From an uncultured Aminicenantes bacterium (GTDB lineage: Bacteria > Acidobacteriota > Aminicenantia > UBA2199), in contig CBDAFS010000031.1 in NCBI GenBank assembly GCA_965195285.1, positions 1 to 64,000 on the forward strand: a stretch of DNA of 64,000 nt, written 5' to 3'. A program made the position numbers and the translations under genes. This document shows, in pieces, positions 9,123 through 43,045 of the stretch. The number at the start of each line of letters is the position of its first letter. Position 1 is the first letter of the stretch. Below the pieces are notes generated by a model. It did no database searches, was not told the origin of the DNA, and saw nothing but the letters and a program-made list of their open reading frames with translations.

Positions 9123-9182
9123 TTCAGATTCCTTACATTTCTTGAATTAAAAATGGATGGTTTTGAGTTCATGATTCGCTTT

Positions 9183-9590: not shown

Positions 9591-9730
9591 TAGAATTCAT
9601 TTTTTATGATAATTTATCCTAATATTTATTTGAAAGCTTTGTAAAAAAATGAGCCTGATGATTGATTTTCGTTTTTTATATTTAAAAAAATCCATCAAAT
9701 ACCCTGTCAATTTGGCAATTGAAAGGAGTT

Positions 9731-9759
9731 ATGATAATACATATTACAGGTTTTGTCAA
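9731..9759 (-). promoter_or_regulatory. Sigma70-type promoter for the hdr/OFOR/flx operon
   Basis: Minus strand TTGACA-17 nt-TATCAT, upstream of hdrC. Confidence 0.65.
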
Positions 9760-9957
9760 AGGAAAGTTAATGGAAAATTTTTTTTTATTGGTTTTTATCC
9801 ATTTTACTTTTATTCTTTTTTTTTATAGATTTTGTTGGGATTTCGGTTTGGAAAACATGATACTTTTGGCTATAATTAGATGAATTCCCGAGAGTCTTTG
9901 CTGGTCGTATATTAATGGATTAATTGTGAGCAAGGCAAAAAATATTCAGGAGAAAAG

Positions 9958-11445: not shown

Positions 11446-11496
11446 AAACAGGAATTGTTTTTCTATTTTTATTCGGAGTCAATGGGATAGGCTAAA

Positions 11497-12195
11497 TCAG
11501 CCAAAACCAGGGACATTGAATGCGGACTCTAACATTTTACTGGATCGTTTGTCTTCAGGATTAAGATCCAGGGCCTTTCGAAACATTTTGATGGATTTTG
11601 AAAATCGACCCGTCTTAAAATAAGCAACTCCCAGGTGATAGAGAACGGCCTCATCTTCGGCATTCATTTCAAGGACTTTTTCAAAGTGGGGAATGGCTTT
11701 GTCATATTTTTCGATGGAATTGTATATGGTTCCCAGATGGTAGTTGGCCACAATCGAGGTGTGGTGTTTTTTCAACAGTTTTTTAAATGAAGCAATGGAC
11801 TGGTGACTGTCCCCTTTGTGGTAACTGGCCAGTCCCAGCCAGTAATGGGCCATGTTGAAATCCGGGTCCAGTTCTATGCATTTTTTCAGACAGTCACTGG
11901 CTTTCTTAAACTGAATTTGATGGTAGTAGCATACACCCAGATTGTAATAGGCATCGGGAAAGTCGGGTTTCAGCTCTATGGCCCGGGCCAGATTCTCGAT
12001 GGACCCTTTTATATTGCCGATCTTGAACATCAGTTTACCGGTGATCCGGTATATATGGGGATTGGATTGATTCATATCCATGTATTTGTGGCATGCCTTG
12101 ATGGCTGCCATGATTTTTCCTTGAGAATTTAATTCATTGATGAGTTCTTCCAACTGGGACAGTACGGGATCTTTCTTCGAATTTTTTTTCTCCAT
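11497..12195 (-). CDS. Tetratricopeptide repeat protein
   Basis: Repeated AYYNLG/AHYWLG/ANYHLG/LYHLG...A..L.P helices. Confidence 0.85.
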   Translation of the reverse strand: MEKKNSKKDPVLSQLEELINELNSQGKIMAAIKACHKYMDMNQSNPHIYRITGKLMFKIGNIKGSIENLARAIELKPDFPDAYYNLGVCYYHQIQFKKASDCLKKCIELDPDFNMAHYWLGLASYHKGDSHQSIASFKKLLKKHHTSIVANYHLGTIYNSIEKYDKAIPHFEKVLEMNAEDEAVLYHLGVAYFKTGRFSKSIKMFRKALDLNPEDKRSSKMLESAFNVPGFG

Positions 12196-12255
12196 TTTTT
12201 TTCCTCGGGTGTTGGTTATTAACTAACATAGAGTGTGGTCAAAGTCAAATAACAC

Positions 12256-12284
12256 TTTACAAATGACTGTTTTTTTTTTAAAAT
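12256..12284 (+). promoter_or_regulatory. Putative sigma70 promoter for the permease
   Basis: TTTACA-17 nt-TAAAAT. Confidence 0.45.
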
Positions 12285-12359
12285 CTGAAATGATCTGTGA
12301 CAGAAATCTATATATCATTCTGTCTCGCATCAAATCCATTCAGATGAACACGGGACATC

Positions 12360-14729
12360 ATGAAATCCAATAACCATCAAAAAAAATCCATTGCTGAAAT
12401 TCCGACCCAGCTGAGCCGCGACCTCAGTCTGTTTCAGGTCACCATGATTGGAGTCGGTGCCATGATTGGAGCAGGTATTTTTGTGCTGACCGGGATTGCT
12501 GCCGGATATGCCGGACCGGCACTGATTCTGGTCTTTGCCCTGAATGGATTGGTTACTCTTTTGACTGCCTTATCCTATGCCGAGCTGGGTTCTTCCTTTC
12601 CCGAGGCCGGGGGGGGGTACCTGTGGGTGAAAGAGGGGCTGGGCGGATTGAACGGTTTTCAGGCCGGCTGGATGAGCTGGTTTGCCCATGCCATGGCCTG
12701 CAGTCTCTATATCCTGGGATTCGGTTACTATTTCTGGGAGGCGCTGCGATTTCTTCAGGTGGATACCCTGATAACCCCTGTGCTGGCTGCGGTTTTACCG
12801 GGAATGGAAAACCATTTTCTGATCGTACAGAAAATTCTGGCGGTTCTGGTGGCGTTGTTCTTTGGCTATATAAATTTCAGGGGAGCCTCGGAAACCGGAA
12901 AATGGGGAAGCCTGGTAACCATTCTCAAGGTGGTGATACTGGCCGGTTTTGCCCTGTCCGGTCTGCTGGTTATTTTAAGGAATCCGGACTGGATGGCCAA
13001 GTTCGAACCCTTTATGGGCAAGGGAGTTGTGGGAGTATTGGGGGCCATGGGGTTGACCTACATTGCTTTTGAGGGATATGAAATCATTGTCCAGAGCGGG
13101 GAGGAGATCAAGAATCCCAGTAAAAACATACCCAGGGCCATTTTTATTTCCCTGCTGATCGTGGTACCCGTCTATATTTTTGTGGGCTTCATTGCCCTGG
13201 GGGCGGTGGAGATACCTGAGGCGGTCCGGCAGGCCCATCCTGAAATCATTAAAATCTGGGATTACCTGGCCTTTGCCAAAGAAGGGGCCATGGTTGAGGC
13301 AGCCAAGCAGTTCATGCCCCTGGGATACCTGATGATGATACTGGGTGGATTGTTTGCCACCATGTCCGCCCTGAATGCCACCATCTATTCATCCTCCCGG
13401 GTTTCCTTTGCCATGGGCCGCGACAAAAACCTTCCCGATATCTTCGGTAAAATCCACCGGTTGAAGAGAACCCCCCATATGGCGGTTTTCCTGTCGGTTA
13501 TTTTGATTGTGCTGATGGCCCTGATCCTGCCCATCGAAGATGTGGCCGCAGCAGCGGATATCATGTTTATTTTACTGTTTGTCCAGGTGAACTGGACACT
13601 GATCGTTCTGCGGAAAAAGAAGTCCAAAATGAAGCGATATTTCCGGGTACCGCTGGTACCCCTGGTTCCCATCATTGCCATTGTGCTGCAGTTGATTTTG
13701 GGGTATTTCCTGTTTCACCTGAGCCCGGTGGCCTGGATTACGGCCATTGTCTGGCTGGTGATGGGCGTGTTGATCTATTACCTGTATTCCAGCGGCCGGG
13801 AAAAGGAGCGGGCCGAAGCCCAGGTTGTTTACGAGGAAAAGCTTCCGGTCAAAACCGGTTACCGTATCCTGGTTCCATTGGCTCACCCGGATCATGTGGA
13901 TGATTTGATCCAGATGGCGGCCTCCATTGCCAAATACCGGAACGGCGAAATCCTGGCCCTGGGAATTGTCCAGGTTCCGGAACAACTACCCGTGGCCGAA
14001 GGCCGACGTTTTATCGATGAATCCAAAGTGATGATGGAAAAGGCGGTAAAATCAGGCAAGCGTTACGGTGTGGTGGTCAACACTCTGCTGCGCATCGGCC
14101 ACAAGGTGACCCGGGCCATCACCGATACGGTCAAAGAGCGAGATGTCGATATGATGGTCATGGGCTGGAAGGGTTTCAGTAATACCCGGGGATCAGTATT
14201 CGGAGGGACCCTGGATGATGTGGTCATGAATGCCGAGTGTGATGTGATGATGATCAAAATGGTTCACCTGGAAAAGATGAAACGCATTCTGCTGCCCACC
14301 TCGGGAGGCCCCCATGCCGGTTTTGCCCTGGAAATTGCCCCGGCCATTGCCCAAACCTACGGAAGTTCCATTATGGTGAGTATGATTGTTCCGCCCGATA
14401 CCAGGCCGGAAGTCCAGGCTGTATACCAGCAGCGGGTGGATGACAACGTGGCTTACTTGAAGGATAAGGTTAAAAAGGTGGAGGGACAGCTGGTTAAGGC
14501 CCGGTCCATCAGTTCCGGAATTTTAAAACTGACCGAACGTTATGATGCCTGTATCATGGGAGCGGCCAGGGAAGGCCTGATGCAGCAGATGCTGTTTGGC
14601 AGTATTCCGAATAAGATCGGCCGAAAGGGCCGGCATACGGTGATCATGGTCAAAAAACACCAGGGAGCCCTGAAGAATATCCTCAGCCGGATTTTTCAAC
14701 GCTCTACCGAACGGGTAGGCAAACGTTAA
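12360..14729 (+). CDS. APC-family amino acid permease fused to two universal stress protein (USP) domains
   Basis: GAMIGAGIF, YAELGS.FP.AGGGY, AFEGYE, about 12 hydrophobic segments, then ILVP and ILLPTSGGPH USP repeats with FGS motif. Confidence 0.9.
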   Translation: MKSNNHQKKSIAEIPTQLSRDLSLFQVTMIGVGAMIGAGIFVLTGIAAGYAGPALILVFALNGLVTLLTALSYAELGSSFPEAGGGYLWVKEGLGGLNGFQAGWMSWFAHAMACSLYILGFGYYFWEALRFLQVDTLITPVLAAVLPGMENHFLIVQKILAVLVALFFGYINFRGASETGKWGSLVTILKVVILAGFALSGLLVILRNPDWMAKFEPFMGKGVVGVLGAMGLTYIAFEGYEIIVQSGEEIKNPSKNIPRAIFISLLIVVPVYIFVGFIALGAVEIPEAVRQAHPEIIKIWDYLAFAKEGAMVEAAKQFMPLGYLMMILGGLFATMSALNATIYSSSRVSFAMGRDKNLPDIFGKIHRLKRTPHMAVFLSVILIVLMALILPIEDVAAAADIMFILLFVQVNWTLIVLRKKKSKMKRYFRVPLVPLVPIIAIVLQLILGYFLFHLSPVAWITAIVWLVMGVLIYYLYSSGREKERAEAQVVYEEKLPVKTGYRILVPLAHPDHVDDLIQMAASIAKYRNGEILALGIVQVPEQLPVAEGRRFIDESKVMMEKAVKSGKRYGVVVNTLLRIGHKVTRAITDTVKERDVDMMVMGWKGFSNTRGSVFGGTLDDVVMNAECDVMMIKMVHLEKMKRILLPTSGGPHAGFALEIAPAIAQTYGSSIMVSMIVPPDTRPEVQAVYQQRVDDNVAYLKDKVKKVEGQLVKARSISSGILKLTERYDACIMGAAREGLMQQMLFGSIPNKIGRKGRHTVIMVKKHQGALKNILSRIFQRSTERVGKR

Positions 14730-14740
14730 ATCGCTTTTCC

Positions 14741-15313
14741 ATGAAGATCCTGCTGGTCAACAATGCCGAGAAGGGTATCGCTGATTACTGTATTCCCATT
14801 GAGCATATAATCCGGCATCAATTCGTTACCTTCAAACGGATAGAATATTCGGAAACACTGAGTGCCGATCTGTCGATTTACCACGGATTCATCCTGACCG
14901 GCTCGCCCTGCGGAAATGACATCGTGGAGCATCACCTGCCCTATTTCAAATGGATCAGGGAGATAGACAAGCCTGTACTGGGAATCTGTGCCGGTCACCA
15001 CATCATCGGGGCCCTGTTCGGTTCCCGGTTAATTCGGGATGTTGAAAGCGAATTGGGTGATTCAACTATTACGATTATCAAGCCAGACCCCATTTTCAAT
15101 GGACTGGAACAGGAAACGCTGGTTGCTCAGGCTCATCATGATGCCATCACCCTTGCGGACAATTTTGTTCTGTTGGCCGGTTCCGAAAGGTGTCCGGTCC
15201 AGGCCATGAAGCATGAAACCCGTCCTCTCTACTCCACCCAGTTCCACCCCGAAACCCGCAATCCCCGAATCATAAAAAACTTCCTGGATATAGTTATGAA
15301 ATTGGGGGAGTGA
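14741..15313 (+). CDS. Stand-alone class I glutamine amidotransferase (GMP synthase subunit A-like)
   Basis: ILTGSP, PVLGICAGH nucleophile Cys, QFHPE His-Glu. Confidence 0.85.
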   Translation: MKILLVNNAEKGIADYCIPIEHIIRHQFVTFKRIEYSETLSADLSIYHGFILTGSPCGNDIVEHHLPYFKWIREIDKPVLGICAGHHIIGALFGSRLIRDVESELGDSTITIIKPDPIFNGLEQETLVAQAHHDAITLADNFVLLAGSERCPVQAMKHETRPLYSTQFHPETRNPRIIKNFLDIVMKLGE

Positions 15314-15483
15314 AAATGCAAAAATGGTATGCGCCCCCCTTTATTGTCTCCAGTATGTTAACATATTGCTAACTTACTGGTTATTTGTCAAGATAAAAAT
15401 GTTGCAACGTAAAACCTCACCCTCCATAGTAAGGCTATACAAGGTTTTAAGGGTTTTCAAATTGAAAATTTGTGAAAATTATT

Positions 15484-15504
15484 TGGCACAAATCTGGCAC
15501 AGTT
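15484..15504 (+). repeat. Direct repeat copy 1 (TGGCACAAATCTGGCACAGTT), internal TGGCAC tandem
   Basis: 18/21 identical to 17051-17071. Confidence 0.7.
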
Positions 15505-15515
15505 AATATATATTA

Positions 15516-15544
15516 TTGACAATGTGCACGCCCTTAATTAAAAT
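15516..15544 (+). promoter_or_regulatory. Sigma70-type promoter for the SIR2-like gene
   Basis: TTGACA-17 nt-TAAAAT. Confidence 0.65.
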
Positions 15545-15648
15545 ACCAGTAGGGAATTATTAATTCTCCTTCATCAATTATTGCAATAGCTTCTTTAACT
15601 GAATATAAATTAATTGATTAATATTATTATTTCTTAAAGGAGAGATAT

Positions 15649-16668
15649 ATGGGAAACAGTGAACCAAAAAAGCGATTCATTACTTATCTACTCGGTGCAG
15701 GTGCAAGTGCTAATGCTCTTCCGGTTGTTAAAATAATTCCTGAAAGATTAAGTCAGTTTAGGGATGATGTCAAAAAATATTTGAATCCAAAAAAAGAAAT
15801 TATTACTCAACGTGATATCGATAAGAAGCCTCATCAAATAATAACAGATATAGATTGGCTTTTAGAACAAACAAAAAAACATATGAGTATTGATACATTT
15901 GCCAAGAAACTCTGGACACGAGGGAATCGTGAAGAATTAATGAAATTGAAAAAGCTATTGTCGTATTTTTTTATTTTTGAACAGGTGGATAAATTGGATA
16001 TGAGGTACGACAATTTCATTGCGTCTATCATTGATTCAACAAAAAAACCTTCGAATGATGTTCGGATTTTAAATTGGAATTATGATTATCAATTCGAAAA
16101 AGCTTATTCTGAGTATCAGGGGTATTCAGATTTGGATATCATTCAAGAGAAGTTAAACGTTGCTCCCTCTCCAAATAAAACCAATCCAGATTCAACTCAA
16201 GGGTTTTTAGATAAATTATGCCTTGTGAAATTGAATGGTACAACTTCGTTTAAGACTATGGAAGGTGAAATACTAAATCTCATCAAGGATTTAAAGAAAA
16301 GAAAGGATGAGATCGAATTTAAGAAAATATTTGAATCTCATTACAATACGCCTGATTCTCATTCCCTTGTCACTTTTGCTTGGGAAAAAAATCAATTACC
16401 AAGCCACCAAAAAGTTCAATTCATTTTAAATCATACTGTTGCAATGGTTATCATTGGATATTCCTTCCCTCAGTTTAATCGTGAGGTCGATAAACAAATT
16501 TTTAATCAGTTGCAAGGAACAGGAAAAAAGATTTATATTCAAGATTTAAATACAGATACAATTAAGGTAAAACTGAAAGGAGTTATGAAAACCAATGATT
16601 ATTGGGATATTATTCCAGTAAACATGACCGATCAGTTTTTTATCCCTTTTGAGTTAGAAATCAAATAA
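15649..16668 (+). CDS. SIR2-like (SIR2_2/AbiH-related) domain protein, candidate defence NADase
   Basis: YLLGAGAS N-terminal motif, ILNWNYD, VKLNG, VIIGYSF; AAGGAG RBS. Confidence 0.75.
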   Translation: MGNSEPKKRFITYLLGAGASANALPVVKIIPERLSQFRDDVKKYLNPKKEIITQRDIDKKPHQIITDIDWLLEQTKKHMSIDTFAKKLWTRGNREELMKLKKLLSYFFIFEQVDKLDMRYDNFIASIIDSTKKPSNDVRILNWNYDYQFEKAYSEYQGYSDLDIIQEKLNVAPSPNKTNPDSTQGFLDKLCLVKLNGTTSFKTMEGEILNLIKDLKKRKDEIEFKKIFESHYNTPDSHSLVTFAWEKNQLPSHQKVQFILNHTVAMVIIGYSFPQFNREVDKQIFNQLQGTGKKIYIQDLNTDTIKVKLKGVMKTNDYWDIIPVNMTDQFFIPFELEIK

Positions 16669-16686
16669 AAGAATTTAGTATCTCTT

Positions 16687-16956
16687 TTACAATTTAATAT
16701 CAACTTTGGATTCATCAAGATATAAATCATCGGGGCATTCCAAACGAGCATACCAGCTTTCGTTCGGATGTTCTGGAAGTTCTCCCCATGATGTCCTAGT
16801 CTCAACAGGTGTCCCTAATTTCGACCTTTTGGGTTCTTTAAGCTTACATCCATGAGCTTCATAAATTTCAACAGCTTTCCGAACTTTCTCCTCAATAGTT
16901 CCGCTTAGCCTTTTAACCAGGATTGAATCCAATCCTATTGTTTCATCACGACTCAT
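16687..16956 (-). CDS. Small hypothetical protein (89 aa)
   Basis: Strong AAGGAGG RBS before the ATG; convergent with the SIR2-like gene. Confidence 0.7.
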   Translation of the reverse strand: MSRDETIGLDSILVKRLSGTIEEKVRKAVEIYEAHGCKLKEPKRSKLGTPVETRTSWGELPEHPNESWYARLECPDDLYLDESKVDIKL

Positions 16957-17050
16957 TTTTCCTCCTTCTCTCCTGTTTTAAAATTTTATTTTATAGAATA
17001 TAACTAAATATTTCAACATATGGGACTGCGCATTGAATATTCGAAAAAAC

Positions 17051-17071
17051 TGGCATATATCTGGCACAATT
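17051..17071 (+). repeat. Direct repeat copy 2 (TGGCATATATCTGGCACAATT)
   Basis: 18/21 identical to 15484-15504. Confidence 0.7.
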
Positions 17072-17231
17072 TGAAAGGTGCAGCAGTGCAAAGTCTGACT
17101 CCAGTCTATTTTATTAAACGTCATAAGAAGATTTGATCCCTTTTTTTTTACCATTCATGATATTGAAACAAAAGGATTTCTTAATTATAATTGATTTGAA
17201 CGTAGTGAATGTTTACAAGGAGAGAAAAATA

Positions 17232-20200
17232 TTGAGTTGGCAAAAGATAATTCCATTTATTTTAATTTTGAATGTATTTCTTTTTTCTGAAGCCAGGAAT
17301 AATTTGGATGAAGAATTATTTGTTGCAGTAAAATCAGGGAGTCTTGAAGTTGTACAGTCTCTAATAGAAAAGGGAGCTGATGTGAATACCAAAGATGAAT
17401 GGAAGTTGACTCCCTTATTTTATGCTGTATGGAAAAATAAAACCGACATAATTTCATACTTGAAAAAGCATGGCGGGATTATATCTAATAAGTCAAAGTT
17501 GGAAAAAGTTTTTGAAGCCGAAAAGTATATAAAAGAAGCTGCATTATTGGAGCGAGATTCCAAAATTGAAAATTCTTTAAATGGTTATATAAAGGCCTTG
17601 AAAATCTATGAGAAAATATTTAATAACAATCATGAAGAAATTGCATTACTACTTTTTAAATGTGCAACTATATATTCAAAACTGAAAGACTATAACTCAG
17701 CTTTAAGCTATCACCATAAAGAAGTAAAAATTAATTTGGAATTATTTGGAGGAATGCATAAAAGTACTGCAATTAGTTATGGAAATATTGGATTTACATA
17801 TAGGAATTTAAATCAATTTCAAGAGGCGATTTTAAATTTTAATAATGCAATTGTAATTCTGGAAAAAATTGATGAAAGCAATAATCTATTGAATATGCTA
17901 TATAGGGCTATTGGTGATATTTATAAAATGATAAATAATGGCGAAAAGGCATTAAATTTTTATTCTAAAGCTTATATATCCCATATAATGTTATATGGAG
18001 AAAATAATGAAAGTGTTGCAGATATTTTACTTGAAATTGGGCTTGTAAATAAAAACAAAAACAATTTTAAAGAAGCGAATATTAATCTAATGAAAGCTCA
18101 TACTATTTATGAAGAGCTTTTGGGGAAATGGCATCCAAAAATAGCTATCGTTTGTGAACATCTTGGATATTTGAATGAATTTATGAAAAAATATAGTACT
18201 GCATTAGATTATTTCAATAAAAGTTTAGAAGTAAAGAAAAGAATATTGGGAGAGGATGACAAACTGATTGCTGAATCCTTTGAAAATATTGGAAGAATCT
18301 ACCAATATTTAGGCAAACCAAATGAAGCTTCTGATTTTTTGAAAAGAACATTAGATATGAAAATAAAATTGTATGGGAAAAATCATATTCAAGTCATATA
18401 TACATTAAATTCTCTGGGCCATTTAGCCAATTCTATTGGAAATCATGAAGAGGCGATAGAACATTTTCTTGAGGCATTAAATATACATAATAATATTTCT
18501 AGAGAAGATAAAACTCTTGTTGCTGGAATATACCGGAGTATAGGTGGTGTTTATAACAAGTTAAAGAAATTTGATCTTGCACTTAATTATTTAAATGATG
18601 CACTAGTTATTCAAAAAATGCATAGTATTAATAAACCATCTGAATTATCATTGACTTACCGTATAATAAAAGATGTATATGCACGCTTAGACCATAAGAA
18701 TAAGGATTTATTTTATCTGAAAAAAGAAGGACAGTTTTGCATGAAATATTTTGGGGAGAACAGTCTTCCTGTTTTTTGGATATATTATGGCATTGCAGTT
18801 TATTATTCTCAAATAGAGGATAATAGCAATGCATTAAAGTATTTAAATAAATCATTATATGTTCATGAAAAAATAAATCCAGAGTCAAATTGGGATACTG
18901 GAGATTTATATTTCTGGATTGGATTTAAAGAGTTCAATATTGATAAATATGATGATGCGATGAAGAATGTCAAGAGGGCATTGTTGATTTTTAATGGATT
19001 GAATAAGAGTAATAAAAATGAAATACAAATTGCTCAATGTTATGAGCTACTTGCTTTCATTTATCGTAGCTTAAATCAGAAAAAATTGGCACTTCAAATC
19101 TATAAGAATGCATATAAAATAAGGCAAAAGATTTATAAAAATGATGCTGAAAAGCTTGCACATGAGAATGTTCAAATGGGAAGTTTTTATGGTACATTGG
19201 GTGATATCAAATCTGCAAAAGAACACCACTTAAAGGCATTAAATCTTTTACTTAAAAATCATGATGAAGACAATATTGATGTTGCATATTGTTATGAATG
19301 GCTTGGCAGGGCTTTAATGGTGAAGCAAAATTTTAAAGAAGCCCTCGAATATATAACAAAGGCACAGAAAATTTATACAAAGATTTTTGGGGTGAATCAT
19401 ATAAAAATTGCAGAAATATATGGCGCATTTGGAACGATATACAGACATTCCAAAAAATATGAAAATGCTCTCAATGCTTATTTTAAAGCACTGGATATTT
19501 ATGAAAAAAATTCTTCAAGTAAAAAATATTCCATTGGAGGGATCTATTTAGCTATTGGATTTAGTTATGAATTAATAGGCAATCATAAAAAGGCAATTTC
19601 ATACTTAGAGAGATGTATTGAGATGTTTGAATCAATTGAGAATAAAATGAGTTTATCAAGAGCTAAATTCTATTTGGCAGGTGCTTATGCTTTTTCAGAA
19701 AACCATGAAAATGCTATTCGAGAATTAGAGGAATCAATTAATATTAAAGACAGAATAAGATTTGAAATTCAAGATCCTACTCATAAAGAATCATTTTATG
19801 AAGATTATTTAGATAATTATCGTTTACTAATAAGAATGCTAATGAAAAAAAAGAAATACAATAGGGCTTTTATAAAAGCAGAACAATCAAAGAGTGTTGT
19901 TTTTGCAGATATGATGGCCAAAAAAGGTGCAAGGGATAATTTCGCAAAAAAAGATTCTAGATTCCAAGATTTACTCAAGGAAGAATATGAGATCTTGAAT
20001 AAAATAAATAAATTAAAAAATTTATTGAAAACACAGACAGAGAAATCTGATTTAACAAAACGAATGTTAATTAACGCACAATCCCAGCTTTCTAACCTGC
20101 AAGATTTAATGTCAAAAAAATATCCAAGTTATTCAGAACTTTCTTATCCAAAGGAAATAACTGTTGAGGAAGCAAAATCATTTTTGAAGGATGATGAAAC

Positions 20201-21461
20201 ATATTTAAGTTTTTATATACTTAGTGATTATTCTGTAGTTTTTATTCTCACAAAAAATGATTTTAAAGTACAGATGATCAATTTTGGAAAAGAGTATTTC
20301 CAAACCAAAATACCTGAATTAAAAAAACAAATAAAAACTTGTTTGAATAAACTTACTTTGTTTATGGGTGGAGTAAAATCTGCAATAAAGAAAAAGGATT
20401 ATTATCCGGGACTCAGTAAGGAATTCTATAAAAACATATTTCAACCAGTAGAAAAACATATTAGGACAAAGAAATTAATTGTTTCTGCGGATGGAATTCT
20501 ATACGGATTCCCTTTAGAAGCCCTGGTTATAGAACAAAAAGAGAAAGTATCATTTGGTGGTGAACTACATTCTATCGAGAAGTGTAAGGATATGCAATTT
20601 AGAGGAGAAGCACCTCTATTTTCTGAATATAACAGTATGACTTTTTTAGGCGATAAGTATAATATATTTTATATACCCTCACTCTCAACTTTAAAAATTT
20701 TAAGAACCGAAACCAAGACGAATGTCAATGTTGAAAATAAAGTAATTGCCTTTGCTGATCCAATATTTAATGATGAGGACCCGAGGGTCAAAGGTACAGA
20801 AAAAAAAGCAACGCAATTGGTTGAGGGTCAATTATATGTAAATAGCAATACTGTACGGAGCTGGCCGCCCCATAGGTTACCAGAAACATCAGAAGAAGCA
20901 AAGATTTTTGTAAAAGAAATAGGCAAGGGTGATGTATATGTTGGAATTGAAGCAAATGAAAAGAGAGTATGGGACAAGGAACTGTCTGATGCGAAATATA
21001 TTTTATTCTCCACTCACGGTATATTGGGAACTGAAATTCAAAGAAGTGAAATGATCGAACCGGCATTGGTATTATCATTGGTTGGAAATACGGAAGAGTA
21101 TAACGGTCTTTTGGAAATGAGTGAAGCGGCAGGCCTTCGTTTGAATTCTGAGCTTGTTATTCTGGCAGCATGTAATAGCGCAGGTGAAAGTGGAAAGGGT
21201 GGTGAGGGATTTGCTGGATTGGCCAGAAGTTTTATTTTTGCAGGGACCCAAGGGGTTATTGCTAGCCATTGGAAGATTGAGAGTATGGCTACAAAAAATT
21301 TGATTTCAATTTTGGGTGAAATGTTATCAAAAAATGATAGACGGCAGGCTTTTTTTAAGGCGAGAGAAAAATTTAAGAGTGTAATTGGAAAGCTTAAATA
21401 TTTTAATATATGTTATGCCCATCCATATTTTTGGTCTGCATTTGTTTATATTGGGGACTGA
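17232..21461 (+). CDS. Exported ankyrin-TPR-CHAT (caspase/separase-like) protease
   Basis: In-frame TTG at 17232 after AAGGAG gives the signal-like MSWQKIIPFILILNVFLFSEA. Ankyrin (LIEKGADVN..D....TPL), long kinesin-light-chain-type TPR array, AEQSKS linker, then CHAT motifs DGILYGFPLEAL, AFADP, LPETSEE, FSTHG, LVILAACNS, GEGFAGLARSF..AG, SHWKI, HPYFWSAF. Confidence 0.9.
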   Translation: MSWQKIIPFILILNVFLFSEARNNLDEELFVAVKSGSLEVVQSLIEKGADVNTKDEWKLTPLFYAVWKNKTDIISYLKKHGGIISNKSKLEKVFEAEKYIKEAALLERDSKIENSLNGYIKALKIYEKIFNNNHEEIALLLFKCATIYSKLKDYNSALSYHHKEVKINLELFGGMHKSTAISYGNIGFTYRNLNQFQEAILNFNNAIVILEKIDESNNLLNMLYRAIGDIYKMINNGEKALNFYSKAYISHIMLYGENNESVADILLEIGLVNKNKNNFKEANINLMKAHTIYEELLGKWHPKIAIVCEHLGYLNEFMKKYSTALDYFNKSLEVKKRILGEDDKLIAESFENIGRIYQYLGKPNEASDFLKRTLDMKIKLYGKNHIQVIYTLNSLGHLANSIGNHEEAIEHFLEALNIHNNISREDKTLVAGIYRSIGGVYNKLKKFDLALNYLNDALVIQKMHSINKPSELSLTYRIIKDVYARLDHKNKDLFYLKKEGQFCMKYFGENSLPVFWIYYGIAVYYSQIEDNSNALKYLNKSLYVHEKINPESNWDTGDLYFWIGFKEFNIDKYDDAMKNVKRALLIFNGLNKSNKNEIQIAQCYELLAFIYRSLNQKKLALQIYKNAYKIRQKIYKNDAEKLAHENVQMGSFYGTLGDIKSAKEHHLKALNLLLKNHDEDNIDVAYCYEWLGRALMVKQNFKEALEYITKAQKIYTKIFGVNHIKIAEIYGAFGTIYRHSKKYENALNAYFKALDIYEKNSSSKKYSIGGIYLAIGFSYELIGNHKKAISYLERCIEMFESIENKMSLSRAKFYLAGAYAFSENHENAIRELEESINIKDRIRFEIQDPTHKESFYEDYLDNYRLLIRMLMKKKKYNRAFIKAEQSKSVVFADMMAKKGARDNFAKKDSRFQDLLKEEYEILNKINKLKNLLKTQTEKSDLTKRMLINAQSQLSNLQDLMSKKYPSYSELSYPKEITVEEAKSFLKDDETYLSFYILSDYSVVFILTKNDFKVQMINFGKEYFQTKIPELKKQIKTCLNKLTLFMGGVKSAIKKKDYYPGLSKEFYKNIFQPVEKHIRTKKLIVSADGILYGFPLEALVIEQKEKVSFGGELHSIEKCKDMQFRGEAPLFSEYNSMTFLGDKYNIFYIPSLSTLKILRTETKTNVNVENKVIAFADPIFNDEDPRVKGTEKKATQLVEGQLYVNSNTVRSWPPHRLPETSEEAKIFVKEIGKGDVYVGIEANEKRVWDKELSDAKYILFSTHGILGTEIQRSEMIEPALVLSLVGNTEEYNGLLEMSEAAGLRLNSELVILAACNSAGESGKGGEGFAGLARSFIFAGTQGVIASHWKIESMATKNLISILGEMLSKNDRRQAFFKAREKFKSVIGKLKYFNICYAHPYFWSAFVYIGD

Positions 21462-21497
21462 ATAATAAAACTTTAATCTTTTGATGTATATCTAATC

Positions 21498-22970
21498 TTA
21501 TTCTTTTGTTCCTTTTTTCTCTATCATTGTTTCAATATTGGCTGCAATTCTGTGTATACTCATTCCTACAATAGCAAATCCAAAATTCAGAAAAACACCG
21601 GTGTTAAGAAAGTATAAATAGCCAATATATCCCAAGCCAACCAAAATAATGAGAGATACAAGAACCTGAGCCAATAGTGATGATAGGTATAAAAATGCAT
21701 AGGCAGCCAAAATAATAACAATTATTTCAAATAAAAGATTTATCCATCGTGGAGGTGGGGTTGGTTGTTTTTTGGTTAAGATTGTGTTTATGGCATTTCC
21801 AAGAATGTAAATTCCAGCCATTTCTCCAACAGGGGTTTGATGGATATCTCCAACATCCGGGCTTGAATTTCCGATAATTATGATTTTCTTTTTGATGAAA
21901 TCCTTATAATATGGTAATTGATCAAACTTGATGTTAATCTGAAAAAGATTTCCTTTACTTAAATCAGTTATTGTTTGATCTTGGTTTCTAAATTGGGAAG
22001 GAATTAATGAATAGCGAATTCTTTGCAAATATATAAAGTGTTTGTCATCAGTAACTTTTATTGTTTTTCCATTTCGAAGAGTTATTGTTGATTTAAAACT
22101 TTTAAATCTATTCTGATTTGATGATAATATCTCTTTTTCCAAATCGAATAAAACATTAATATTTCCATCGATAGCAAGTAATACAGTTAAGATGGGAATG
22201 CCCCATAGTATTTTCTTTGATCCATTGTTATCCACATAGGTGCTGTATAGATTCCAGTAACGGACAATGTCATCTCTGTGAGTTGCAGATACCCTGGGAA
22301 CAACTCTGTAAAATTTCCTGATATTATTGTTATAGTTTATTCCTTCCTCAAATAGATCGCTATATTGATTCTTTTTGAGATCACACTGGACGCCAATTCT
22401 TTGGGGGAATATGATTTTTGTTATGTTATTTTTATTATCATGAAGGATATTTTCAAGGACACTTCGCAATTTCTGATCAGCGTCTTTATCACTGGATTTA
22501 TCTTCTAATAATATATCTAATATAATCACTTTTGCCATACCTTGATAGGCAGTTTCCAGAATCGAAGCAAGTTTATCCCTTGGAGTAATTAATGGTTCTC
22601 CCCAGTCTTGATAGGTTTCATGATCAATATCAACAAACAATATTGGAGATGTCTTTATTTTTTGTTTTTCTTGAACTGCTTCTTTGGCTTCAGCTCTAAT
22701 AAAATGATCAAATAATTTATCAATAATGCTTTCCCCTAGACTTGTATGTTCCAAATAGTGCATGGATAAAGCAATAACGATACCTATTATGATATTTATA
22801 AAAAAATGGATTCTTTTCTTTTTATTGAACTTGAAAAAGTTAAATGCATTATTAAATCCTTTGGAAATAAATACAATAGTTTGAATAATTTTTCTTAGTA
22901 GGGAGGAAATAGTTTTAATACCTTGTCTTATTATTCCTCTTGATGAGGGAACTTTATTTTTTTGATTCAT
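21498..22970 (-). CDS. CHASE2-domain membrane protein without C-terminal output domain
   Basis: N-terminal TM, ILFVDID..T...W...PRDKLA, AKVIILDI, KIIIIG...DIHQTPVGEMAGIYILGNAINTIL, then three TMs and a stop about 15 aa later. Confidence 0.85.
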   Translation of the reverse strand: MNQKNKVPSSRGIIRQGIKTISSLLRKIIQTIVFISKGFNNAFNFFKFNKKKRIHFFINIIIGIVIALSMHYLEHTSLGESIIDKLFDHFIRAEAKEAVQEKQKIKTSPILFVDIDHETYQDWGEPLITPRDKLASILETAYQGMAKVIILDILLEDKSSDKDADQKLRSVLENILHDNKNNITKIIFPQRIGVQCDLKKNQYSDLFEEGINYNNNIRKFYRVVPRVSATHRDDIVRYWNLYSTYVDNNGSKKILWGIPILTVLLAIDGNINVLFDLEKEILSSNQNRFKSFKSTITLRNGKTIKVTDDKHFIYLQRIRYSLIPSQFRNQDQTITDLSKGNLFQINIKFDQLPYYKDFIKKKIIIIGNSSPDVGDIHQTPVGEMAGIYILGNAINTILTKKQPTPPPRWINLLFEIIVIILAAYAFLYLSSLLAQVLVSLIILVGLGYIGYLYFLNTGVFLNFGFAIVGMSIHRIAANIETMIEKKGTKE

Positions 22971-22981
22971 AATTTAAAAAT

Positions 22982-23950
22982 TTATTTTAATTGATGATTT
23001 ATCATCTGTTGTTCCAAATGATTGTAATAATGCATAATCAAGATGATAAAAAGCTTTTTATTGTCATCTTGAAGTGATTTTCTATCCATTTCGTTTAGAA
23101 TTAAATAACTCTTCCAATATAAATCAAATTCAGTGGGGTAAGTATCACTTATAAATTGTAAATATGATGCTCTTTTAAGCTTCTTTATAGTATCGTTCGA
23201 TTCTTTATTTCCAATAGACAAAAGATCCTTTTTTATCAAATCTGATTGAGATTTGTCTAAAATTTTTAAATAGTATTTATCAGTTTTTTCAATAGAATCT
23301 TTTTTGGTAACTTCCCAGGAGTAGATCCCTGAAGTTTTCAATTTTAATTCAACTACATTAGTTTTTATTGATTTATGACCTTTTGTTGGAGTACTAAATT
23401 TAATTGTATCTGAATTATCTTTAATTACTATTTCTTCTGTATCATTATTATCCCAGGCAAATGTAATGGTACTATCTGGCAGTAATGTTGCCCAATACCC
23501 AGGTTGAGGGAAAAAAGGTTCATCCTCCGCATTAATAATATCGTTTTCGCTCCTTGTGGCAAGGTTTCTTTTTTTATATCTTTCTTTTTCAAAGCCAATA
23601 AAAGAAGCAAGTTTTTTTAGGAATCCTTTTTTATCTTTAGGAGGATTATTTAAAATAATTATGGTTTTAGCATTTACTTTTTTTATTGATGTAAAAGGAG
23701 AAAGTTTTATCTTTAAGTTTTGGATCCCACTTTTTTGATAAATCTTATCGCCTTCAAAAAGTTCAGTCATAGGTTCAGCCTTAAATTTTAAATTATTGGA
23801 TCTCTGAACAACACAGTCTTTATCAAAACCACCCAGAAGTAAGGCAATTGGGTTTTTCGCATGAATTTCGGCACCTTGAATTATAAAAAAATAAAAAAAT
23901 ATTAAAATTAGATATAATTTATTTGATTTTTTTAAGAATGACTTATTCAT
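22982..23950 (-). CDS. Exported DUF928-like protein
   Basis: Signal-like N-terminus, ATRS linker, then P...TL...TITFAW, L..SGIYSWEV and a helical end with LY; the layout is typical of DUF928 partners of CHAT/CHASE2. AGGAGAGGAG RBS. Confidence 0.6.
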   Translation of the reverse strand: MNKSFLKKSNKLYLILIFFYFFIIQGAEIHAKNPIALLLGGFDKDCVVQRSNNLKFKAEPMTELFEGDKIYQKSGIQNLKIKLSPFTSIKKVNAKTIIILNNPPKDKKGFLKKLASFIGFEKERYKKRNLATRSENDIINAEDEPFFPQPGYWATLLPDSTITFAWDNNDTEEIVIKDNSDTIKFSTPTKGHKSIKTNVVELKLKTSGIYSWEVTKKDSIEKTDKYYLKILDKSQSDLIKKDLLSIGNKESNDTIKKLKRASYLQFISDTYPTEFDLYWKSYLILNEMDRKSLQDDNKKLFIILIMHYYNHLEQQMINHQLK

Positions 23951-24251
23951 TTCTCCTCTCCTTAACTACATTCTAAAAAAAATGATTAAATATTTCAATA
24001 CTTAATAGTAATAATGTCTGAACTATAGAATAGCCAAGTTTTTTCTTGAAATAAATATTTATTTTTTATATAAGAAACCTTATCTAAGCCTTTTAAACAA
24101 ATAGTTTATCATGTGTCATATCTTTACCATGTCTATTAAGAATATTTAAAAAGATAAGGATCAAATCTTTGTTATTGAAAAAGGCTTGGGAAAGATTATC
24201 AGGCAACAAATAGAAATGTGTAAAGATTGGGCATACGGTGGGAATTGGAAT

Positions 24252-27200
24252 TTACATGTTGCGGCGGTACTGGCCGCCCACCCGGTAGAGGGCATTGGTG
24301 ATCTGGCCCAGGGAGCAGCACTTGCTCGCTTCCATCAGCTTTTCAAATATATTCTGATTCTTTTTTACCACTCCCTGCAATTCGGCCAGCAGTTTCGGGG
24401 TGTTGTCGGCGTGTTTTTTTTGCAGGTGATCCAGCATGCGGATCTGGTATTTTTTTTCGGTTTCCGTGGCCCGGATCACTTCCTTGGGCATGATGGTGGG
24501 CGAACCCTCGGATGACAGAAAGGTGTTCACCCCGATGATGGGATATTCACCGGTCTGTTTCCGGTCTTCGTAATACAGGGATTCTTCCTGGATTCTGGAC
24601 CGCTGGTAATTGGTCTCCATGGCCCCCAGCACTCCGCCCCGATCAGAAATGCGTTCAAATTCCGAAAGGACTGCCTCTTCAACCAGGTCGGTCAGTGCTT
24701 CGATGATGAAGGAGCCCTGCAAAGGATTCTGGTTTTTGGTCAGACCGTATTCCCGGTTTATGATCAGCTGGATGGCAATGGCCCGGCGAACCGATTCCTC
24801 GGTGGGGGTGGTAATGGCCTCATCGTAGGCATTGGTATGAAGCGAATTGCAGTTGTCATAGACGGCATACAGGGCTTGCAGGGTGGTGCGGATATCATTG
24901 AAATTGATTTCCTGGGCATGCAGGGATCGGCCCGAGGTCTGGATATGGTACTTGAGCAGCTGGGAGCGCTTGTCGGCATGGTATTTCAATTTCATGGCCT
25001 TGGCCCAGATGCGCCTGGCCACCCGTCCGATCACCGCATATTCGGCATCGATGCCGTTGGAGAAAAAGAAGGAGAGGTTGGGACCGAACCGGTTGATATC
25101 CATTCCCCGGGACAGGTAGTATTCCACATAGGTGAATCCGTTGGACAGGGTCAGGGCAAGCTGGGTAATAGGATTGGCCCCGGCCTCATCGATATGGTAA
25201 CCGGAGATTGAAACCGAGTAAAAATTCCGGACATTATGATCGATAAAATATTCCTGGACATCACCCATCAGTTTCAGGGCAAATTCAGTGGAAAAGATAC
25301 AGGTGTTCTGGGCCTGGTCTTCCTTAAGGATATCGGCCTGAACCGTACCCCGGACTCTGGAGATGGCCTCTTTCTTAATGTTTTCATAGATATCACGGGG
25401 AAGCACCTGGTCACCGGTAACCCCGAGCAGCATCAATCCCAGTCCGTTGTGTCCCCGGGGCAGCTTGCCCTGGTATTCGGGACGGGGCAGGCCTTTTTTC
25501 TGATAAATGGAATTTATTTTCTTCTGGACTTGTTTTTCCAGGCCGTTCTTTTTGATATGGACTTCACACTCCTGGTCAATGACCGCATTCATGAAAAAAC
25601 CGGCCATAATGGCTGCCGGCCCGTTGATGGTCATGGAAACCGAGCTGCTGGAATCGGTCAGCCGGAAACCGGAATAGAGTTTCTTGGCATCATCCAGGCA
25701 GCAGATTGAAACACCCGAATTACCGATTTTGCCGTAAATATCCGGCCGTTGGGCCGGGTCCTCTCCGTAGAGGGTTACCGAATCAAAGGCAGTAGACAGG
25801 CGAACAGCCGGCTGGCCGGCTGACACATAGTGAAAACGCTTGTTTGTACGCTCCGGTCCACCCTCGCCGGCAAACATTCGGGTCGGGTCTTCTCCCTCCC
25901 GTTTAAAGGGAAACACGCCGGCCGTGTAGGGGAATTCCCCGGGCACGTTTTCCTGCAAATTCCATTTCAGGATGTCTCCCCAGGCCCGGTAGCGGGGCAG
26001 GCTGATCTTGGGGATCCGGGTGTGGGAAAGGGTTTCGGTATGGGTGGCGATTTTTAATTTTTGATCCCGGACCTGAAAGTGGAAATATTCACCCTGGTAG
26101 GCCCGGATCTTCTTCTGCCAGTTTTTCAGGACTTCCCGGTTCTCGGAACTGAGGCCGGATTCGAATTTTTTGTAAAGAGCTGACAGGTGTTTTTCAAGGG
26201 AATTCTCGTCCTGTGAGCCGGATTCCTTCAGGGCTTCCCGGGATTGATGAATCCCGTAGAGTTTTTGAGCAATGTCGCTCTGTTCGGTTGCCCAGTCGTT
26301 GTATTTTTGAATTGAATCCACAATTTCGGACAGGTAGCGGGAGCGATTGGAGGGAATGATGGATATCCGGTCGGATATCTCTGCTTTCGGGTCATAGCCG
26401 GTTTTTAAACCGGTCCCGGTTTTTTCCACCAGTTTGTCCAGAGTGGTCCGGTAAAGGGTGTTGATTCCCGGATCGTAAAAATGCGAGGCAATGGTGCCAA
26501 AAACCGGGAGTTGTTCATCCCCGGTATCCCAGTTGCTGTGATTTCTCCGGTATTGCTTCCGCACATCCCGCAGCGCGTCCAGGGCACCCCGCTTGTCGAA
26601 TTTATTGATGGCAATGATGTTGGCAAAATCCAGCATGTCGATTTTTTCCAGCTGGGTGCTGGCCCCATACTCAGGGGTCATGACATACAGGCAGAGGTCG
26701 GCATAATCAGTGATTTCCGAATCGGATTGGCCGATGCCCGATGTTTCCAGGATGATTAAATCAAAGGCAGCGGCCTTTAATATATTTATTGCTTCCCGAA
26801 TATGTCTGGACATGGCAATATTGGACTGACGGGTGGCCAAAGAGCGCATGTAAACCCGGTCGGATTCGATGCTGTTCATGCGGATGCGGTCGGCCAGCAG
26901 GGCGCCGCCGGTCTTGCGTTTGGTGGGATCCACCGAAACAATGGCCACGGTTTTCTCCCGAAAATCATTTAAAAACCGGTTAACCAGTTCATCGATCAGG
27001 GATGATTTTCCCGAACCGCCGGTGCCGGTTATACCCAGAACCGGAACCGATGTTTTGGATGATATTTTTTTTATTTCATCGAAAATGGTTTTGTTTTTCT
27101 CCGGAAAATTTTCCGCGGCTGAGATGAGGCGGGCAATGGTCCGGGGATTTTTTTTCTTCAGATTTTCCAGATAAGGTCTGATACCGGTCCCGGTGGGGAA

Positions 27201-27635
27201 ATCACAGCGGGAGAGCATGTCATTGATCATGCCCTGGAGGCCCATTTCCCGGCCGTCATCCGGGGAATAAATGCGTTCGATTCCGTATTGCTGGAGCTCT
27301 TTGATCTCATCGGGCAGAATGACTCCACCCCCGCCGGCAAAAATCCGTATTTGTTCCGAATTCGCTTGCTTGAGCATATCAACCATATATTTAAGGAATT
27401 CGATGTGCCCCCCCTGATAGGAAGTGATGCCAATGGCCTGGGCATCCTCCTGGATGGCACAATCCACGATTTCCTTTACCGAACGGTTGTGTCCCAGGTG
27501 AATCACTTCACAACCCGAAGACTGGATGACGCGGCGCATGATATTGATGGCGGCATCGTGTCCATCAAAGAGCGAAGCAGCGGTAACCACCCGGACCTTG
27601 TTTTTCAATTTATAAATGTCTTGGGCTTTTTTCAT
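24252..27635 (-). CDS. icmF: Fused isobutyryl-CoA mutase / MeaI GTPase chaperone
   Basis: B12 domain [13 protein letters not shown]-loop [15 protein letters not shown], mutase PTRMFAGEG (Phe = ICM type), [13 protein letters not shown]-terminal GGQYRRNM; start MKKAQD at 27635. Confidence 0.95.
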
Positions 27636-27645
27636 ATTCAGTCCA

Positions 27646-28398
27646 TTATTTCTTGATTGAAAAACGCCAGGCGCAGTACCATTCTTCCGGATGGGGATCC
27701 GGAGGGCAACTGATGCAGCTGGTCCGAATCCGGGAATCGATGGATTCGGCAAAAGTAGTATATTCGATAATGCCGGCAGACTTGCAGGGATAATCGGAGA
27801 GGCCCTTTCGCTTGCGGGCAGACTGCACCCGACAGTCATTCATTTGAAAAACAAAATCATTTCCGGTTTCTTCGGAAACGGATTGCTGGTTGATGGCCGC
27901 ATACAGGCGGAATTCCAGTGCTTTTTTCAGCCCGTCCAGTCCGGGGTTGTCCGGCAGCTTTAGATATTGTTTGATGGACCAGGCTTCAAAGGGAGAAAAA
28001 TGCGACCAACAGGAGTCATTGCATTTTTTGGCCTCTGTCATATCCATGGAGAATTCTACGGCCTGAAACCAGACACCGTCATTGGCCAGCCAGTTCACTG
28101 CTATGGTTTTTTTGAGTTCATCGAGTTTTTCCGGAGATAGATTCAGGAGCGGAGCGGGGATATTTTTCTCCAGATCAAATCCCAGGGTCTTGGACAGTTT
28201 ACGCATCTGGATTTCAGAGCTGCGCTCATAAACCATTTTTAATATTTCCTGGGCTTTTTCCCGGCCCAGATGCTGCTGAACTTCTCCATACCACATGGCA
28301 TGGTGCATCATGAGGCGGTGAATAAAGTCCATGGTTAAACGAGCATTATCGCGGTGGTTCAGATTTCCGTCTGACCGGTTGGTTTCTTGAGTTGACAC
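27646..28398 (-). CDS. DUF6125-like protein (Cys-rich C-terminus)
   Basis: HHAMWY and [13 protein letters not shown] repeats; CRVQ..R...PC...C..CPPD....YCAWRF; GTG at 28398 after GGGAGG. Confidence 0.65.
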
Positions 28399-41742: not shown

Positions 41743-41748
41743 GAAAAA

Positions 41749-41777
41749 ACTGTATCAAACTCTACCTGAAAAGTCAA
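41749..41777 (-). promoter_or_regulatory. Putative transposase promoter with -35 inside the inverted repeat
   Basis: Minus strand TTGACT-17 nt-TACAGT, 6 nt before the ATG. Confidence 0.5.
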
Positions 41778-41787
41778 TCACAGATTT

Positions 41788-41819
41788 GACCCCTTTTTTG
41801 TTCGACCCCTTTTTTGTTC
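41788..41819 (+). repeat. Exact 16-bp tandem duplication GACCCCTTTTTTGTTC x2 at the element end
   Basis: 41788-41803 is identical to 41804-41819. Confidence 0.85.
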
Positions 41820-43022: not shown

Positions 43023-43045
43023 TAAGTCATTTTATTTAAAGCAAA

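Follow-up and report, generated by a model that had tools for sequence, protein, structure and literature searches.

A three-gene module lies between positions 17,232 and 23,950 of the window, the 64,000-nucleotide stretch of DNA analysed here (contig CBDAFS010000031.1, from an uncultured Aminicenantes bacterium). It encodes a protease made of ankyrin (ANK) repeats, tetratricopeptide repeats (TPR) and a CHAT domain, a CHASE2 membrane protein that has no output domain, and a protein of 322 residues. The module is best described as a minimal variant of a widespread grouping in which a caspase-fold protease occurs together with CHASE2 and a DUF928/MtxA-type protein. Judged by profile comparison and predicted structure, the 322-residue protein is a remote homologue of DUF928 with the architecture of MtxA, a periplasmic protein of Magnetospirillum gryphiswaldense. 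Our preferred reading, to which we give somewhat less than even weight, is that this protein is a resident partner of CHASE2 that would be cut by the exported protease within the motif T-R-S, between the arginine and the serine, switching the membrane unit. The features of the module are as follows, where ORF stands for open reading frame, Ig for immunoglobulin and AF2 for AlphaFold 2.

17217..17222, forward strand: AAGGAG, Shine-Dalgarno-like, spaced 9 nt from TTG 17232
17232..21461, forward strand: ANK-TPR-CHAT protease gene, 1409 aa from TTG 17232, within the ORF 17133-21461
17232..17294, forward strand: signal-peptide-like N-terminus, with n-region SWQK, h-region IIPFILILNVFLF (13 hydrophobic residues) and c-region SEA
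17316..17486, forward strand: ankyrin repeats, Pfam Ank_4/Ank_2, ORF residues 62-118 (Ank_4 E 2.1e-11)
17769..19757, forward strand: TPR array, TPR_12 (E 9.7e-84), TPR_10, TPR_1 and others, in stretches within ORF residues 213-875
20418..21458, forward strand: C-terminal CHAT domain (PF12770, E 1.1e-39)
21015-21017 and 21171-21173, forward strand: CHAT catalytic codons for His (in STHG) and Cys (in AACNS)
21498..22970, reverse strand: CHASE2 membrane protein, 490 aa (PF05226, E 9.1e-26, the sole family found)
22982..23950, reverse strand: 322-aa protein of the MtxA/DUF928 type, predicted to be exported; regions in the AF2 model are a signal peptide (1-31), a beta domain (36-101), a disordered linker (104-133), an Ig-like domain (150-230) and a helical domain (233-321)
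23549..23557, reverse strand: T132-R133-S134 in the disordered linker, at the conserved [ST]-[RK]-G position, a candidate protease cleavage site

An earlier, sequence-only reading of this DNA had called the 322-residue protein DUF928-like. At the level of Pfam this label did not hold: the protein matches nothing in Pfam, NCBIfam or PADLOC, and the DUF928 model (PF06051, gathering threshold 26 bits) gives no match to it at E <= 10 and 0 matches in a six-frame search of its own genome. It was borne out by comparison of profiles. The protein has 17 relatives at 38-42 % identity, and a basic-then-hydrophobic leader is seen in 17 of the 18 aligned close sequences, the other one (P0008) being cut at its N-terminus. 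An exhaustive phmmer search returned 161 cluster representatives at E <= 0.001, and the resulting alignment has 147 rows (the 150 listed representatives minus four short fragments, plus P0001, which is the window protein). Seven of the 147 match PF06051, mostly at positions 22-107 of the hidden Markov model (HMM), which form the beta-sandwich part. When 127 rows of the family were compared by hhalign with four canonical DUF928 proteins, all from same-phylum genomes and above the Pfam cut-off (4 of 401 genomes, the window's own having none), the match reached a probability of 97.6 % with an E of 3.2e-12 over 149 columns. It runs from 122 to 277 in the query and from 68 to 239 in the template, and it sets the TRG of the family upon the GA[ST]RG of DUF928. 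A profile search of a 5.8-billion-protein set with the 127-row alignment returned the close family again and nothing else (20 matches).

The AF2 model of the protein has a predicted local distance difference test (pLDDT) score of 74.9, which falls below 50 at residues 104-133 and lies at about 72-89, in 10-residue blocks, across the region that matches the C-terminal domain of MtxA. This domain (4Z29_A) is matched by model residues 151-314 with a VIA Z of 9.5 and a root-mean-square deviation of 3.4 A over 140 of 176 residues, leading the next VIA entry (Z 6.2) by 3.3 Z, and with a Foldseek E of 5.3e-5. The Atlas feature score of the protein to an MtxA cluster is 0.90, which is taken as a lead only. 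The three Pfam models that cover MtxA, PF24045 (DUF7354), PF22433 (MtxA_IG-like) and PF22121 (MtxA_C), give no match to the protein at E <= 10, and six-frame searches of its own genome with them give none in the window. Given that it falls below the HMM thresholds of both families, the protein formally belongs to neither DUF928 nor MtxA. A FecR-like identity of the N-terminal beta domain was considered and rejected, since Pfam gave no support at E <= 10 and FecR does not appear in the list of 25 families (30 were matched) obtained with the 147 relatives. The family also includes a subfamily of about 460-530 residues with a C-terminal extension (P0031, P0129, P0160, L039 9099-10532 and L040 8988-10544), and in three of its members this extension matches DUF4384 (best E 7e-12), a domain often fused to bacterial caspases.

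The arginine at position 133 of the linker is invariant in all 18 close sequences, and in the 147-row alignment this position holds R or K in 112 of the 126 non-gap rows, with T or S before it in 99 of 126 and G after it in 83 of 112. Distant members keep the basic residue as well (S-K-G in L039, S-R-T in L040). The motif stands in the context LATRS in the window and GA[ST]RG in canonical DUF928. On this alignment, the [ST]-[RK]-G position of the linker is the likely point of cleavage: it resembles a processing site given the conserved basic residue, the flexible linker and the exported caspase-fold proteases encoded alongside. Orthocaspases and metacaspases have Arg/Lys specificity, separase sites contain Arg, and many members of the clan cut after Arg or Lys.

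The protease itself proved to be as the sequence-only reading had described it, with an intact His-Cys dyad and a signal-like N-terminus when started at TTG 17232. Its CHAT domain scores 137.1 bits against a Pfam cut-off of 24, and 141.2 bits in the genome search, and the T-H-G and A-C columns of the dyad are invariant in all six aligned CHAT domains. The best start of the gene is probably TTG 17232, which has AAGGAG 9 nt upstream. The N-terminus reaches a hydropathy of 2.17 in its top 15-residue window, and every start codon 5' of the ANK repeats retains the hydrophobic segment. Against PADLOC-DB 2.0, the only match in the triad is that of the ANK region to PDC-M72A (1.6e-7); CHASE2, the 322-residue protein and a SIR2-like protein encoded nearby have none at E <= 0.1. 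The same genome carries a second CHAT gene (L001, G000:C6:22639-23589), in a 958-aa open frame and with a score of 204 bits.

The CHASE2 protein had been described as lacking an output, and this is confirmed: PF05226 (91.4 bits, gathering threshold 26.3) is followed by no second Pfam or NCBIfam family, and hence by no cyclase, kinase or GGDEF output, anywhere in the 490 residues, and the chain ends some 5-15 residues past the last transmembrane (TM) helix. In the AF2 model (pLDDT 87.7) a basic N-terminal helix is followed by TM1 (residues 50-74), by an alpha/beta domain spanning roughly residues 105-400 and by three more TM helices (408-428, 431-457 and 464-485). A word-index search, which spanned proteins of 269-858 residues and so sampled no longer fused forms, found 63 homologues of 331-510 residues at 30-52 % identity, all with PF05226 only, and their alignment has 11 invariant columns. 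These PF05226-only homologues and their conserved CHASE2 motifs show that the lack of an output belongs to a conserved architecture and does not result from truncation. It is also recognised at its N-terminus, where a basic tail of about 50 residues precedes TM1 and ends in a K..HFFIN motif, the CHASE2 domain starting at residue 55-95 in the short forms versus 18-23 in the cyclase-coupled forms. This tail might be the sole cytoplasmic contact of the module. The genome, which is 94.9 % complete, has this one CHASE2 gene only.

In fold searches with the CHASE2 model, the periplasmic part has no significant match, the best being 5er3_A (Z 5.8, obtained with the whole-protein model), and the wide search is dominated by TM-bundle matches of a generic kind. 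The idea that the periplasmic domain is itself caspase-like was discarded, as caspase-2 chains appear only at a Foldseek E of about 0.3 and none of these chains stands among the 50 listed VIA entries (best Z 4.7). Sequence searches of the PDB with the profiles of the CHASE2 and 322-residue families returned nothing meaningful.

The trio recurs elsewhere, as the sequence-only reading had anticipated. Pattern scans for the close family gave 10 loci, two in genomes (both Candidatus Aminicenantes metagenome-assembled genomes, MAGs) and eight in metagenomes. CHASE2 follows the 322-like gene in all eight loci that have downstream DNA (L004-L010 and L012); it is in pieces in L005 and cut by the contig end in L006 and L007, being recognised in L007 by blastp at 50 % identity, while in L011 and L013 the DNA stops within the 322-like gene or right at it. 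All nine loci with upstream DNA have a caspase-fold protease with H and C motifs beside the pair (L007, with just 287 nt upstream, is not one of the nine). In L005, L008 and L009 this is a divergent TPR-CHAT gene, and in L004, L006, L010, L011, L012 and L013 a co-directional WD40-C14 gene encoding the motifs YFAGHG and IDACNSG. L012 and L013 may represent a single locus, as they have in common a stretch of 187 aa that is 100 % identical. A class-wide search that started from one Aminicenantes MAG found the family in 3 of 300 genomes and added two more distant loci, L039 and L040, in which the gene for an output-less CHASE2 (491 and 496 aa) precedes that for a longer DUF928-like protein and exported C14 caspases are encoded close by. 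In L039 (2357-7603, forward strand) two exported C14 caspases, one of them with Lcl_C, flank a VWA-domain protein 5' of the pair, and the caspase of L040 carries a fused FGE-sulfatase domain. Locus L008 also carries a protein with DUF4041 and T5orf172/MUG113 1.4 kb 3' of CHASE2 (11849-13534, forward strand), which is not seen in the other loci.

The association extends to canonical or near-canonical DUF928, for which five loci were compared (L029-L033, where L029 comprises five scanned ORFs and L032 the fusion ORF only). A CHASE2-adenylate/guanylate cyclase adjoins DUF928 in four of them (L029, L030, L031 and L033), and a caspase-fold protease is present in four, as TPR-CHAT in L030 and L031, as C14-TPR in L033 and as a single 1551-aa DUF928-TPR-CHAT fusion in L032; all these proteins have leaders. 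None was found among the five ORFs of L029.

It follows from the predicted export and membrane signals of the three proteins that their functional domains would meet outside the inner membrane, as had been proposed. This placement is most strongly supported by comparison, because every complete protease neighbour has a signal-peptide-like N-terminus: at the close loci those of L006 (two), L008, L009, L010 (two) and L013, and beyond them those of L030-L033, L039 (two proteins) and L040. The relation to DUF928, the co-occurrence of the three genes elsewhere and the predicted export of CHAT thus all came out on the side of the sequence-only reading.

The same comparison bears on whether the three genes belong together at all. 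The CHAT gene of the window runs towards the CHASE2/322-residue pair and so is not transcribed together with it, with 36 nt between CHAT and CHASE2 (21462-21497) and 11 nt between CHASE2 and the 322-residue gene (22971-22981), the layout given at the outset; this and the protease-less scan of L029 are what could be said for the genes being chance neighbours, with CHAT functionally unrelated to the pair. A protease at all nine informative close loci and at both distant ones, drawn from two protease families and lying in three orientations, together with the DUF928-TPR-CHAT fusion, makes this the least probable of the explanations considered, one that is hardly credible.

Decay is little better placed. 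A cluster that is drifting or non-functional, its CHASE2 having lost a cyclase, would suit the same-phylum canonical loci, where DUF928 is paired with CHASE2-cyclases of 608-636 aa, and the foreign island that holds the module and is absent from close relatives. All three ORFs of the window are intact, with no internal stops, the catalytic dyad is preserved, and at least nine other loci have the short form together with its partners, besides the 63 homologues with their shared architecture. A decayed remnant is very improbable for this reason, the conservation of the short form largely excluding it.

Two natural fusions speak on the role of the DUF928-type protein. P0083 (988 aa) joins a CHASE2 with its TM helices, through a lysine-rich linker and a hydrophobic helix, to a DUF928-like module; it is not a simple read-through, because the order of its modules is the reverse of that in the window operon. 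The other is the DUF928-TPR-CHAT protein of L032. Together they suggest that the DUF928-type protein stays in place as a co-receptor or adaptor, and they argue against the free pro-ligand of the sequence-only reading. Of the protease-activated relay that it had proposed, the placement, the DUF928 kinship and the co-occurrence stand, and a free ligand is the less likely form of the partner. A further protein, P0039, combines a leader, TPR repeats and a DUF928-like module.

In the mechanism that we prefer, the 322-residue protein would be exported and would sit on the periplasmic CHASE2 domain as a co-receptor, as the conserved operon and the natural fusion suggest. The exported ANK-TPR-CHAT protease would be positioned or triggered by ligands of its own repeat arrays and would cut the partner in the flexible linker, between R133 and S134. 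The cut would part the N-terminal beta domain from the Ig-plus-helical core, perhaps exposing a new N-terminus in the manner of a tethered-ligand receptor, and would shift the four-helix membrane unit of CHASE2 into another state. In relatives coupled to a cyclase, the synthesis of cyclic nucleotides (cNMP) would change as a result. In the window copy the response would have to take place at the membrane or depend on a partner encoded elsewhere, given that there is no cyclase, kinase or second CHASE2 gene; this is the least supported step of the scheme, and whether the window copy signals is uncertain because it has no cytoplasmic output.

Several points weigh against this mechanism. No candidate is at hand for the downstream step, since the CHASE2 protein lacks an output domain and comes from the only CHASE2 gene of a nearly complete genome, and the convergent CHAT gene is transcribed apart from its supposed partners. 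In the window, R133 is followed by S where the motif has G. CHAT proteases have no established specificity, and both TPR-CHAT and WD40-C14 proteases would have to accept the same site. "Substrate" may even be the wrong word, because a cut at the motif in the DUF928-TPR-CHAT fusion would not part DUF928 from the protease. Deletion of mtxA had no phenotype under standard conditions according to the available text (PMC4439547), and in the caspase-CHASE2 fusions, as described in the accessible parts of PMC3501461 and PMC8195603, the caspase is cytoplasmic and CHASE2 is taken to be the sensor, which suggests the opposite flow of information.

That opposite flow is the basis of a second reading, in which CHASE2 and the DUF928-like protein would sense and the binding of a ligand would free or activate the exported protease, the latter then being the output and degrading envelope or foreign proteins in the periplasm. 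This would explain why an output domain is dispensable, because the protease itself would be the output. The conservation of the output-less architecture in the 63 homologues and the exported caspase-fold protease at every output-less locus with enough DNA are in its favour, the published caspase-CHASE2 fusions are, as far as their available text goes, read as sensor plus protease effector, and a DUF928-TPR-CHAT fusion would tether the protease to its receptor. This reading nonetheless leaves unexplained why the disordered linker of the DUF928-type protein has a conserved basic site, the protease bears large repeat arrays of its own (TPR, WD40 and ANK), which are usually recognition parts, no candidate substrate is encoded nearby, and the cyclase-coupled loci already have a second output in cNMP. 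We regard this reversed wiring as possible and hold it clearly below cleavage of a resident partner.

A role in conflict or defence had been proposed from the genomic setting, for which the features of the neighbourhood are the following.

9958-11445: 495-aa protein of no family, its N-terminus resembling a leader, in a second low-GC stretch
11497-12195, reverse strand: 232-aa TPR protein, in the same low-GC stretch
14741-15313: GATase gene, its stop at 15313 forming the left border of the island
15314..24251: AT-rich, strain-variable island of five ORFs (SIR2-like gene, 89-aa ORF and the three-gene module)
15649-16668: SIR2-like gene, 339 aa (Pfam SIR2_2 E 0.027, under the cut-off)
16687-16956, reverse strand: 89-aa ORF with a GGAGGA site just 5', GC 0.40 and no Pfam family
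24252-27839, reverse strand: IcmF-like fused mutase gene, 1195 aa, its stop at 24252 forming the right border of the island

The AT-rich island was correctly recognised in the sequence-only reading: its GC is 0.27-0.37, and 0.27-0.32 in the part with the three-gene module, against about 0.5 in the flanks, with only the 89-aa ORF above the rest. The protein at its right border is a fusion of a B12-binding domain, a MeaB GTPase and a methylmalonyl-CoA-mutase. Public contigs from several sequencing runs, among them X2-X4, were compared over positions 13000-26000. The likely source run covers all of this at about 14x, with one contig from 15378 to 26000. No RNA run that holds this DNA stands among the public runs listed. 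In run X2 the depth is about 15x in the flanks and 0-5.5x in the island; one of its contigs begins exactly at 24252, with no likeness to the sequence before that position, and loose ends occur at 15295 and 15423. In other runs the homology to related strains stops exactly at the stop codon of the IcmF-like gene. The triad is represented in X2-X4 by short diverged pieces at 90-95 % identity and low depth and the 89-aa ORF by diverged copies in X2 and X4, and positions 15604-16471 lack cover in X2-X4, which is a lack of cover only.

Among 401 genomes sampled from the phylum, only that of the window carries the close 322-residue family, and none of the five nearest genomes does, of which three belong to the same genus (70-91 % completeness); the lineage of the window is thus otherwise without it. 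The island is accessory, strain-variable DNA, given this rarity in phylum and genus and the drop of X2 coverage within it, and a horizontally acquired, self-contained envelope module forms part of the best explanation of the three genes. An empty site was not demonstrated through the GATase gene in 20 relatives, where the same-genus matches are weak paralogues and the gene is poorly conserved. There is no tRNA between 8 and 30 kb of the window, and neither an integrase nor a convincing terminal repeat was found at the island. An inverted repeat of 23 nt (17128-17150 and 24147-24169, 20 of 23 complementary, with AAGATTTGATCC exact) brackets precisely the three-gene module, and it may be due to chance, because 157 comparable pairs exist in 9.2 kb of this AT-rich DNA. 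A scan for promoters and terminators gave 61 promoter-like sites where 52.8 were expected, an uninformative result. Other low-GC DNA in the window lies at 9000-12200 (GC 0.36-0.39) and in patches at 41000-45000 (0.33-0.38 within a background of about 0.5).

In a defence or conflict reading, the repeats would detect a periplasmic protein of an invader or competitor, and proteolysis would make the four-helix unit of CHASE2 damaging to the membrane, in a manner resembling abortive infection. The low GC and variability of the island, the scarcity of the family (1 of 401 genomes of the phylum, 0 of 3 of the genus) and the T5orf172/DUF4041 neighbour at L008 would fit, and PMC8195603, in its available text, describes proteases of the caspase fold that bear TPR or WD40 arrays as characteristic of conflict systems. 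The neighbouring protein is weakly SIR2-like: 28 of its 30 Atlas matches fall in clusters where 15-21 % of the members have SIR2_2, which sustains the earlier label, while its Pfam match stays under the cut-off. Beyond the ANK repeats, PADLOC models match nothing in the triad. No defence neighbour recurs across the annotated related loci, L004 being surrounded by electron transfer flavoprotein, ferredoxin and ketoacyl-synthase genes; an integrase, a tRNA or convincing terminal repeats were not found, and the TM bundle gave only generic fold matches. What favours the earlier proposal is the island context only, and we consider such a role unlikely.

A bolder version, which we rate slightly lower still, is that the output-less CHASE2 is no sensor and forms the membrane end of a self-contained, extracytoplasmic death or defence switch of the caspase type. 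The protease would recognise a foreign or damage-derived periplasmic protein and cut an MtxA/DUF928-type lid at the conserved Arg, and the freed four-helix unit would perturb the membrane. If this were true, CHASE2 would have begun as an effector gated by proteolysis, or could act as one, and the receptors coupled to a cyclase would derive from it, with cNMP as their report of the same cut.

To our knowledge, the cue that CHASE2 senses has been an open question since the domain was defined. The conserved pairing of an exported MtxA/DUF928-type protein that has a basic site with an exported protease offers a concrete candidate for a protein-level input to CHASE2, and with the output-less variant the question comes down to three small parts. 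This variant also leaves two alternatives, that CHASE2 acts although it has no cytoplasmic domain or that the real output is the protease. The literature search, carried out largely outside subscription journals, returned no paper on a CHASE2/DUF928/CHAT triad and nothing that pairs "CHAT domain" with CHASE2.

Among known systems, the closest parallels to a regulated cut are analogies only, their substrates and receptors being non-homologous to those of the window. In Craspase (type III-E), TPR-CHAT cuts Csx30, a dedicated substrate encoded next door, in a cytoplasmic and RNA-guided reaction; in the protease-activated receptors, which are eukaryotic, a regulated, site-specific cut switches a partner protein. 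CyaK, CyaD1 and CyaD2 of Sinorhizobium meliloti are presumably CHASE2 cyclases, the term CHASE2 itself being absent from the paper on NsrA. In the available text of that paper (PMC7529298), the NsrA-CyaK/CyaD1/CyaD2 pathway has inner-membrane receptors, a peptidic and protease-sensitive external signal and an envelope accessory protein. The latter is an outer-membrane protein, neither DUF928 nor a caspase-fold protease is described there, and the output is cyclic AMP, which is not possible for the window copy.

Caspase-fold proteases are functionally tied to CHASE2 also in the metacaspase-CHASE2 of Trichodesmium (PMC3501461, PMC2853523) and in EACC2-caspase-CHASE2 (PMC8195603), where, in the parts available, the caspase is predicted to be cytoplasmic and lies on the same polypeptide; the window differs in having a separate, exported protease and a DUF928-type third component. 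A WD40, CHASE2 and DUF928 cluster of Nostoc punctiforme is mentioned in passing in the accessible text of PMC5587647.

MtxA (MGR_0208) is described in the available text of PMC4439547 as a periplasmic protein of 313 aa with a signal peptide, an N-terminal beta domain, an Ig-like domain and a helical TPR-like domain, whose flexible linker is cut by trypsin to leave a stable fragment from residue 142, and whose gene is followed by that of a CHASE2 adenylate cyclase. It thus shares with the 322-residue protein the four regions, the length (about 313-322 aa), the 4Z29 fold of the C-terminal two thirds and the CHASE2 gene next door. Its CHASE2 partner has a cyclase and that of the window has none, and the same text mentions no protease neighbour, whereas the window has an exported CHAT protease. 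MtxA, of solved structure and function not known, is now linked to the DUF928 family and to periplasmic caspase-like proteases.

Canonical DUF928 proteins resemble that of the window in being exported, in carrying GA[ST]RG before an Ig-like and helical core, and in lying beside CHASE2 and an exported caspase-fold protease. The window protein differs from them in falling below the Pfam threshold and in bearing at its N-terminus an additional beta domain, some 70 residues long; the CHASE2 encoded with it has a basic tail of about 50 residues in place of a cyclase, and two-partner-secretion genes are absent beside the 322-residue gene. What is particular to the window is thus the combination of an output-less CHASE2, an N-terminal extension of the MtxA type, ANK repeats on the protease and a location in a variable island.

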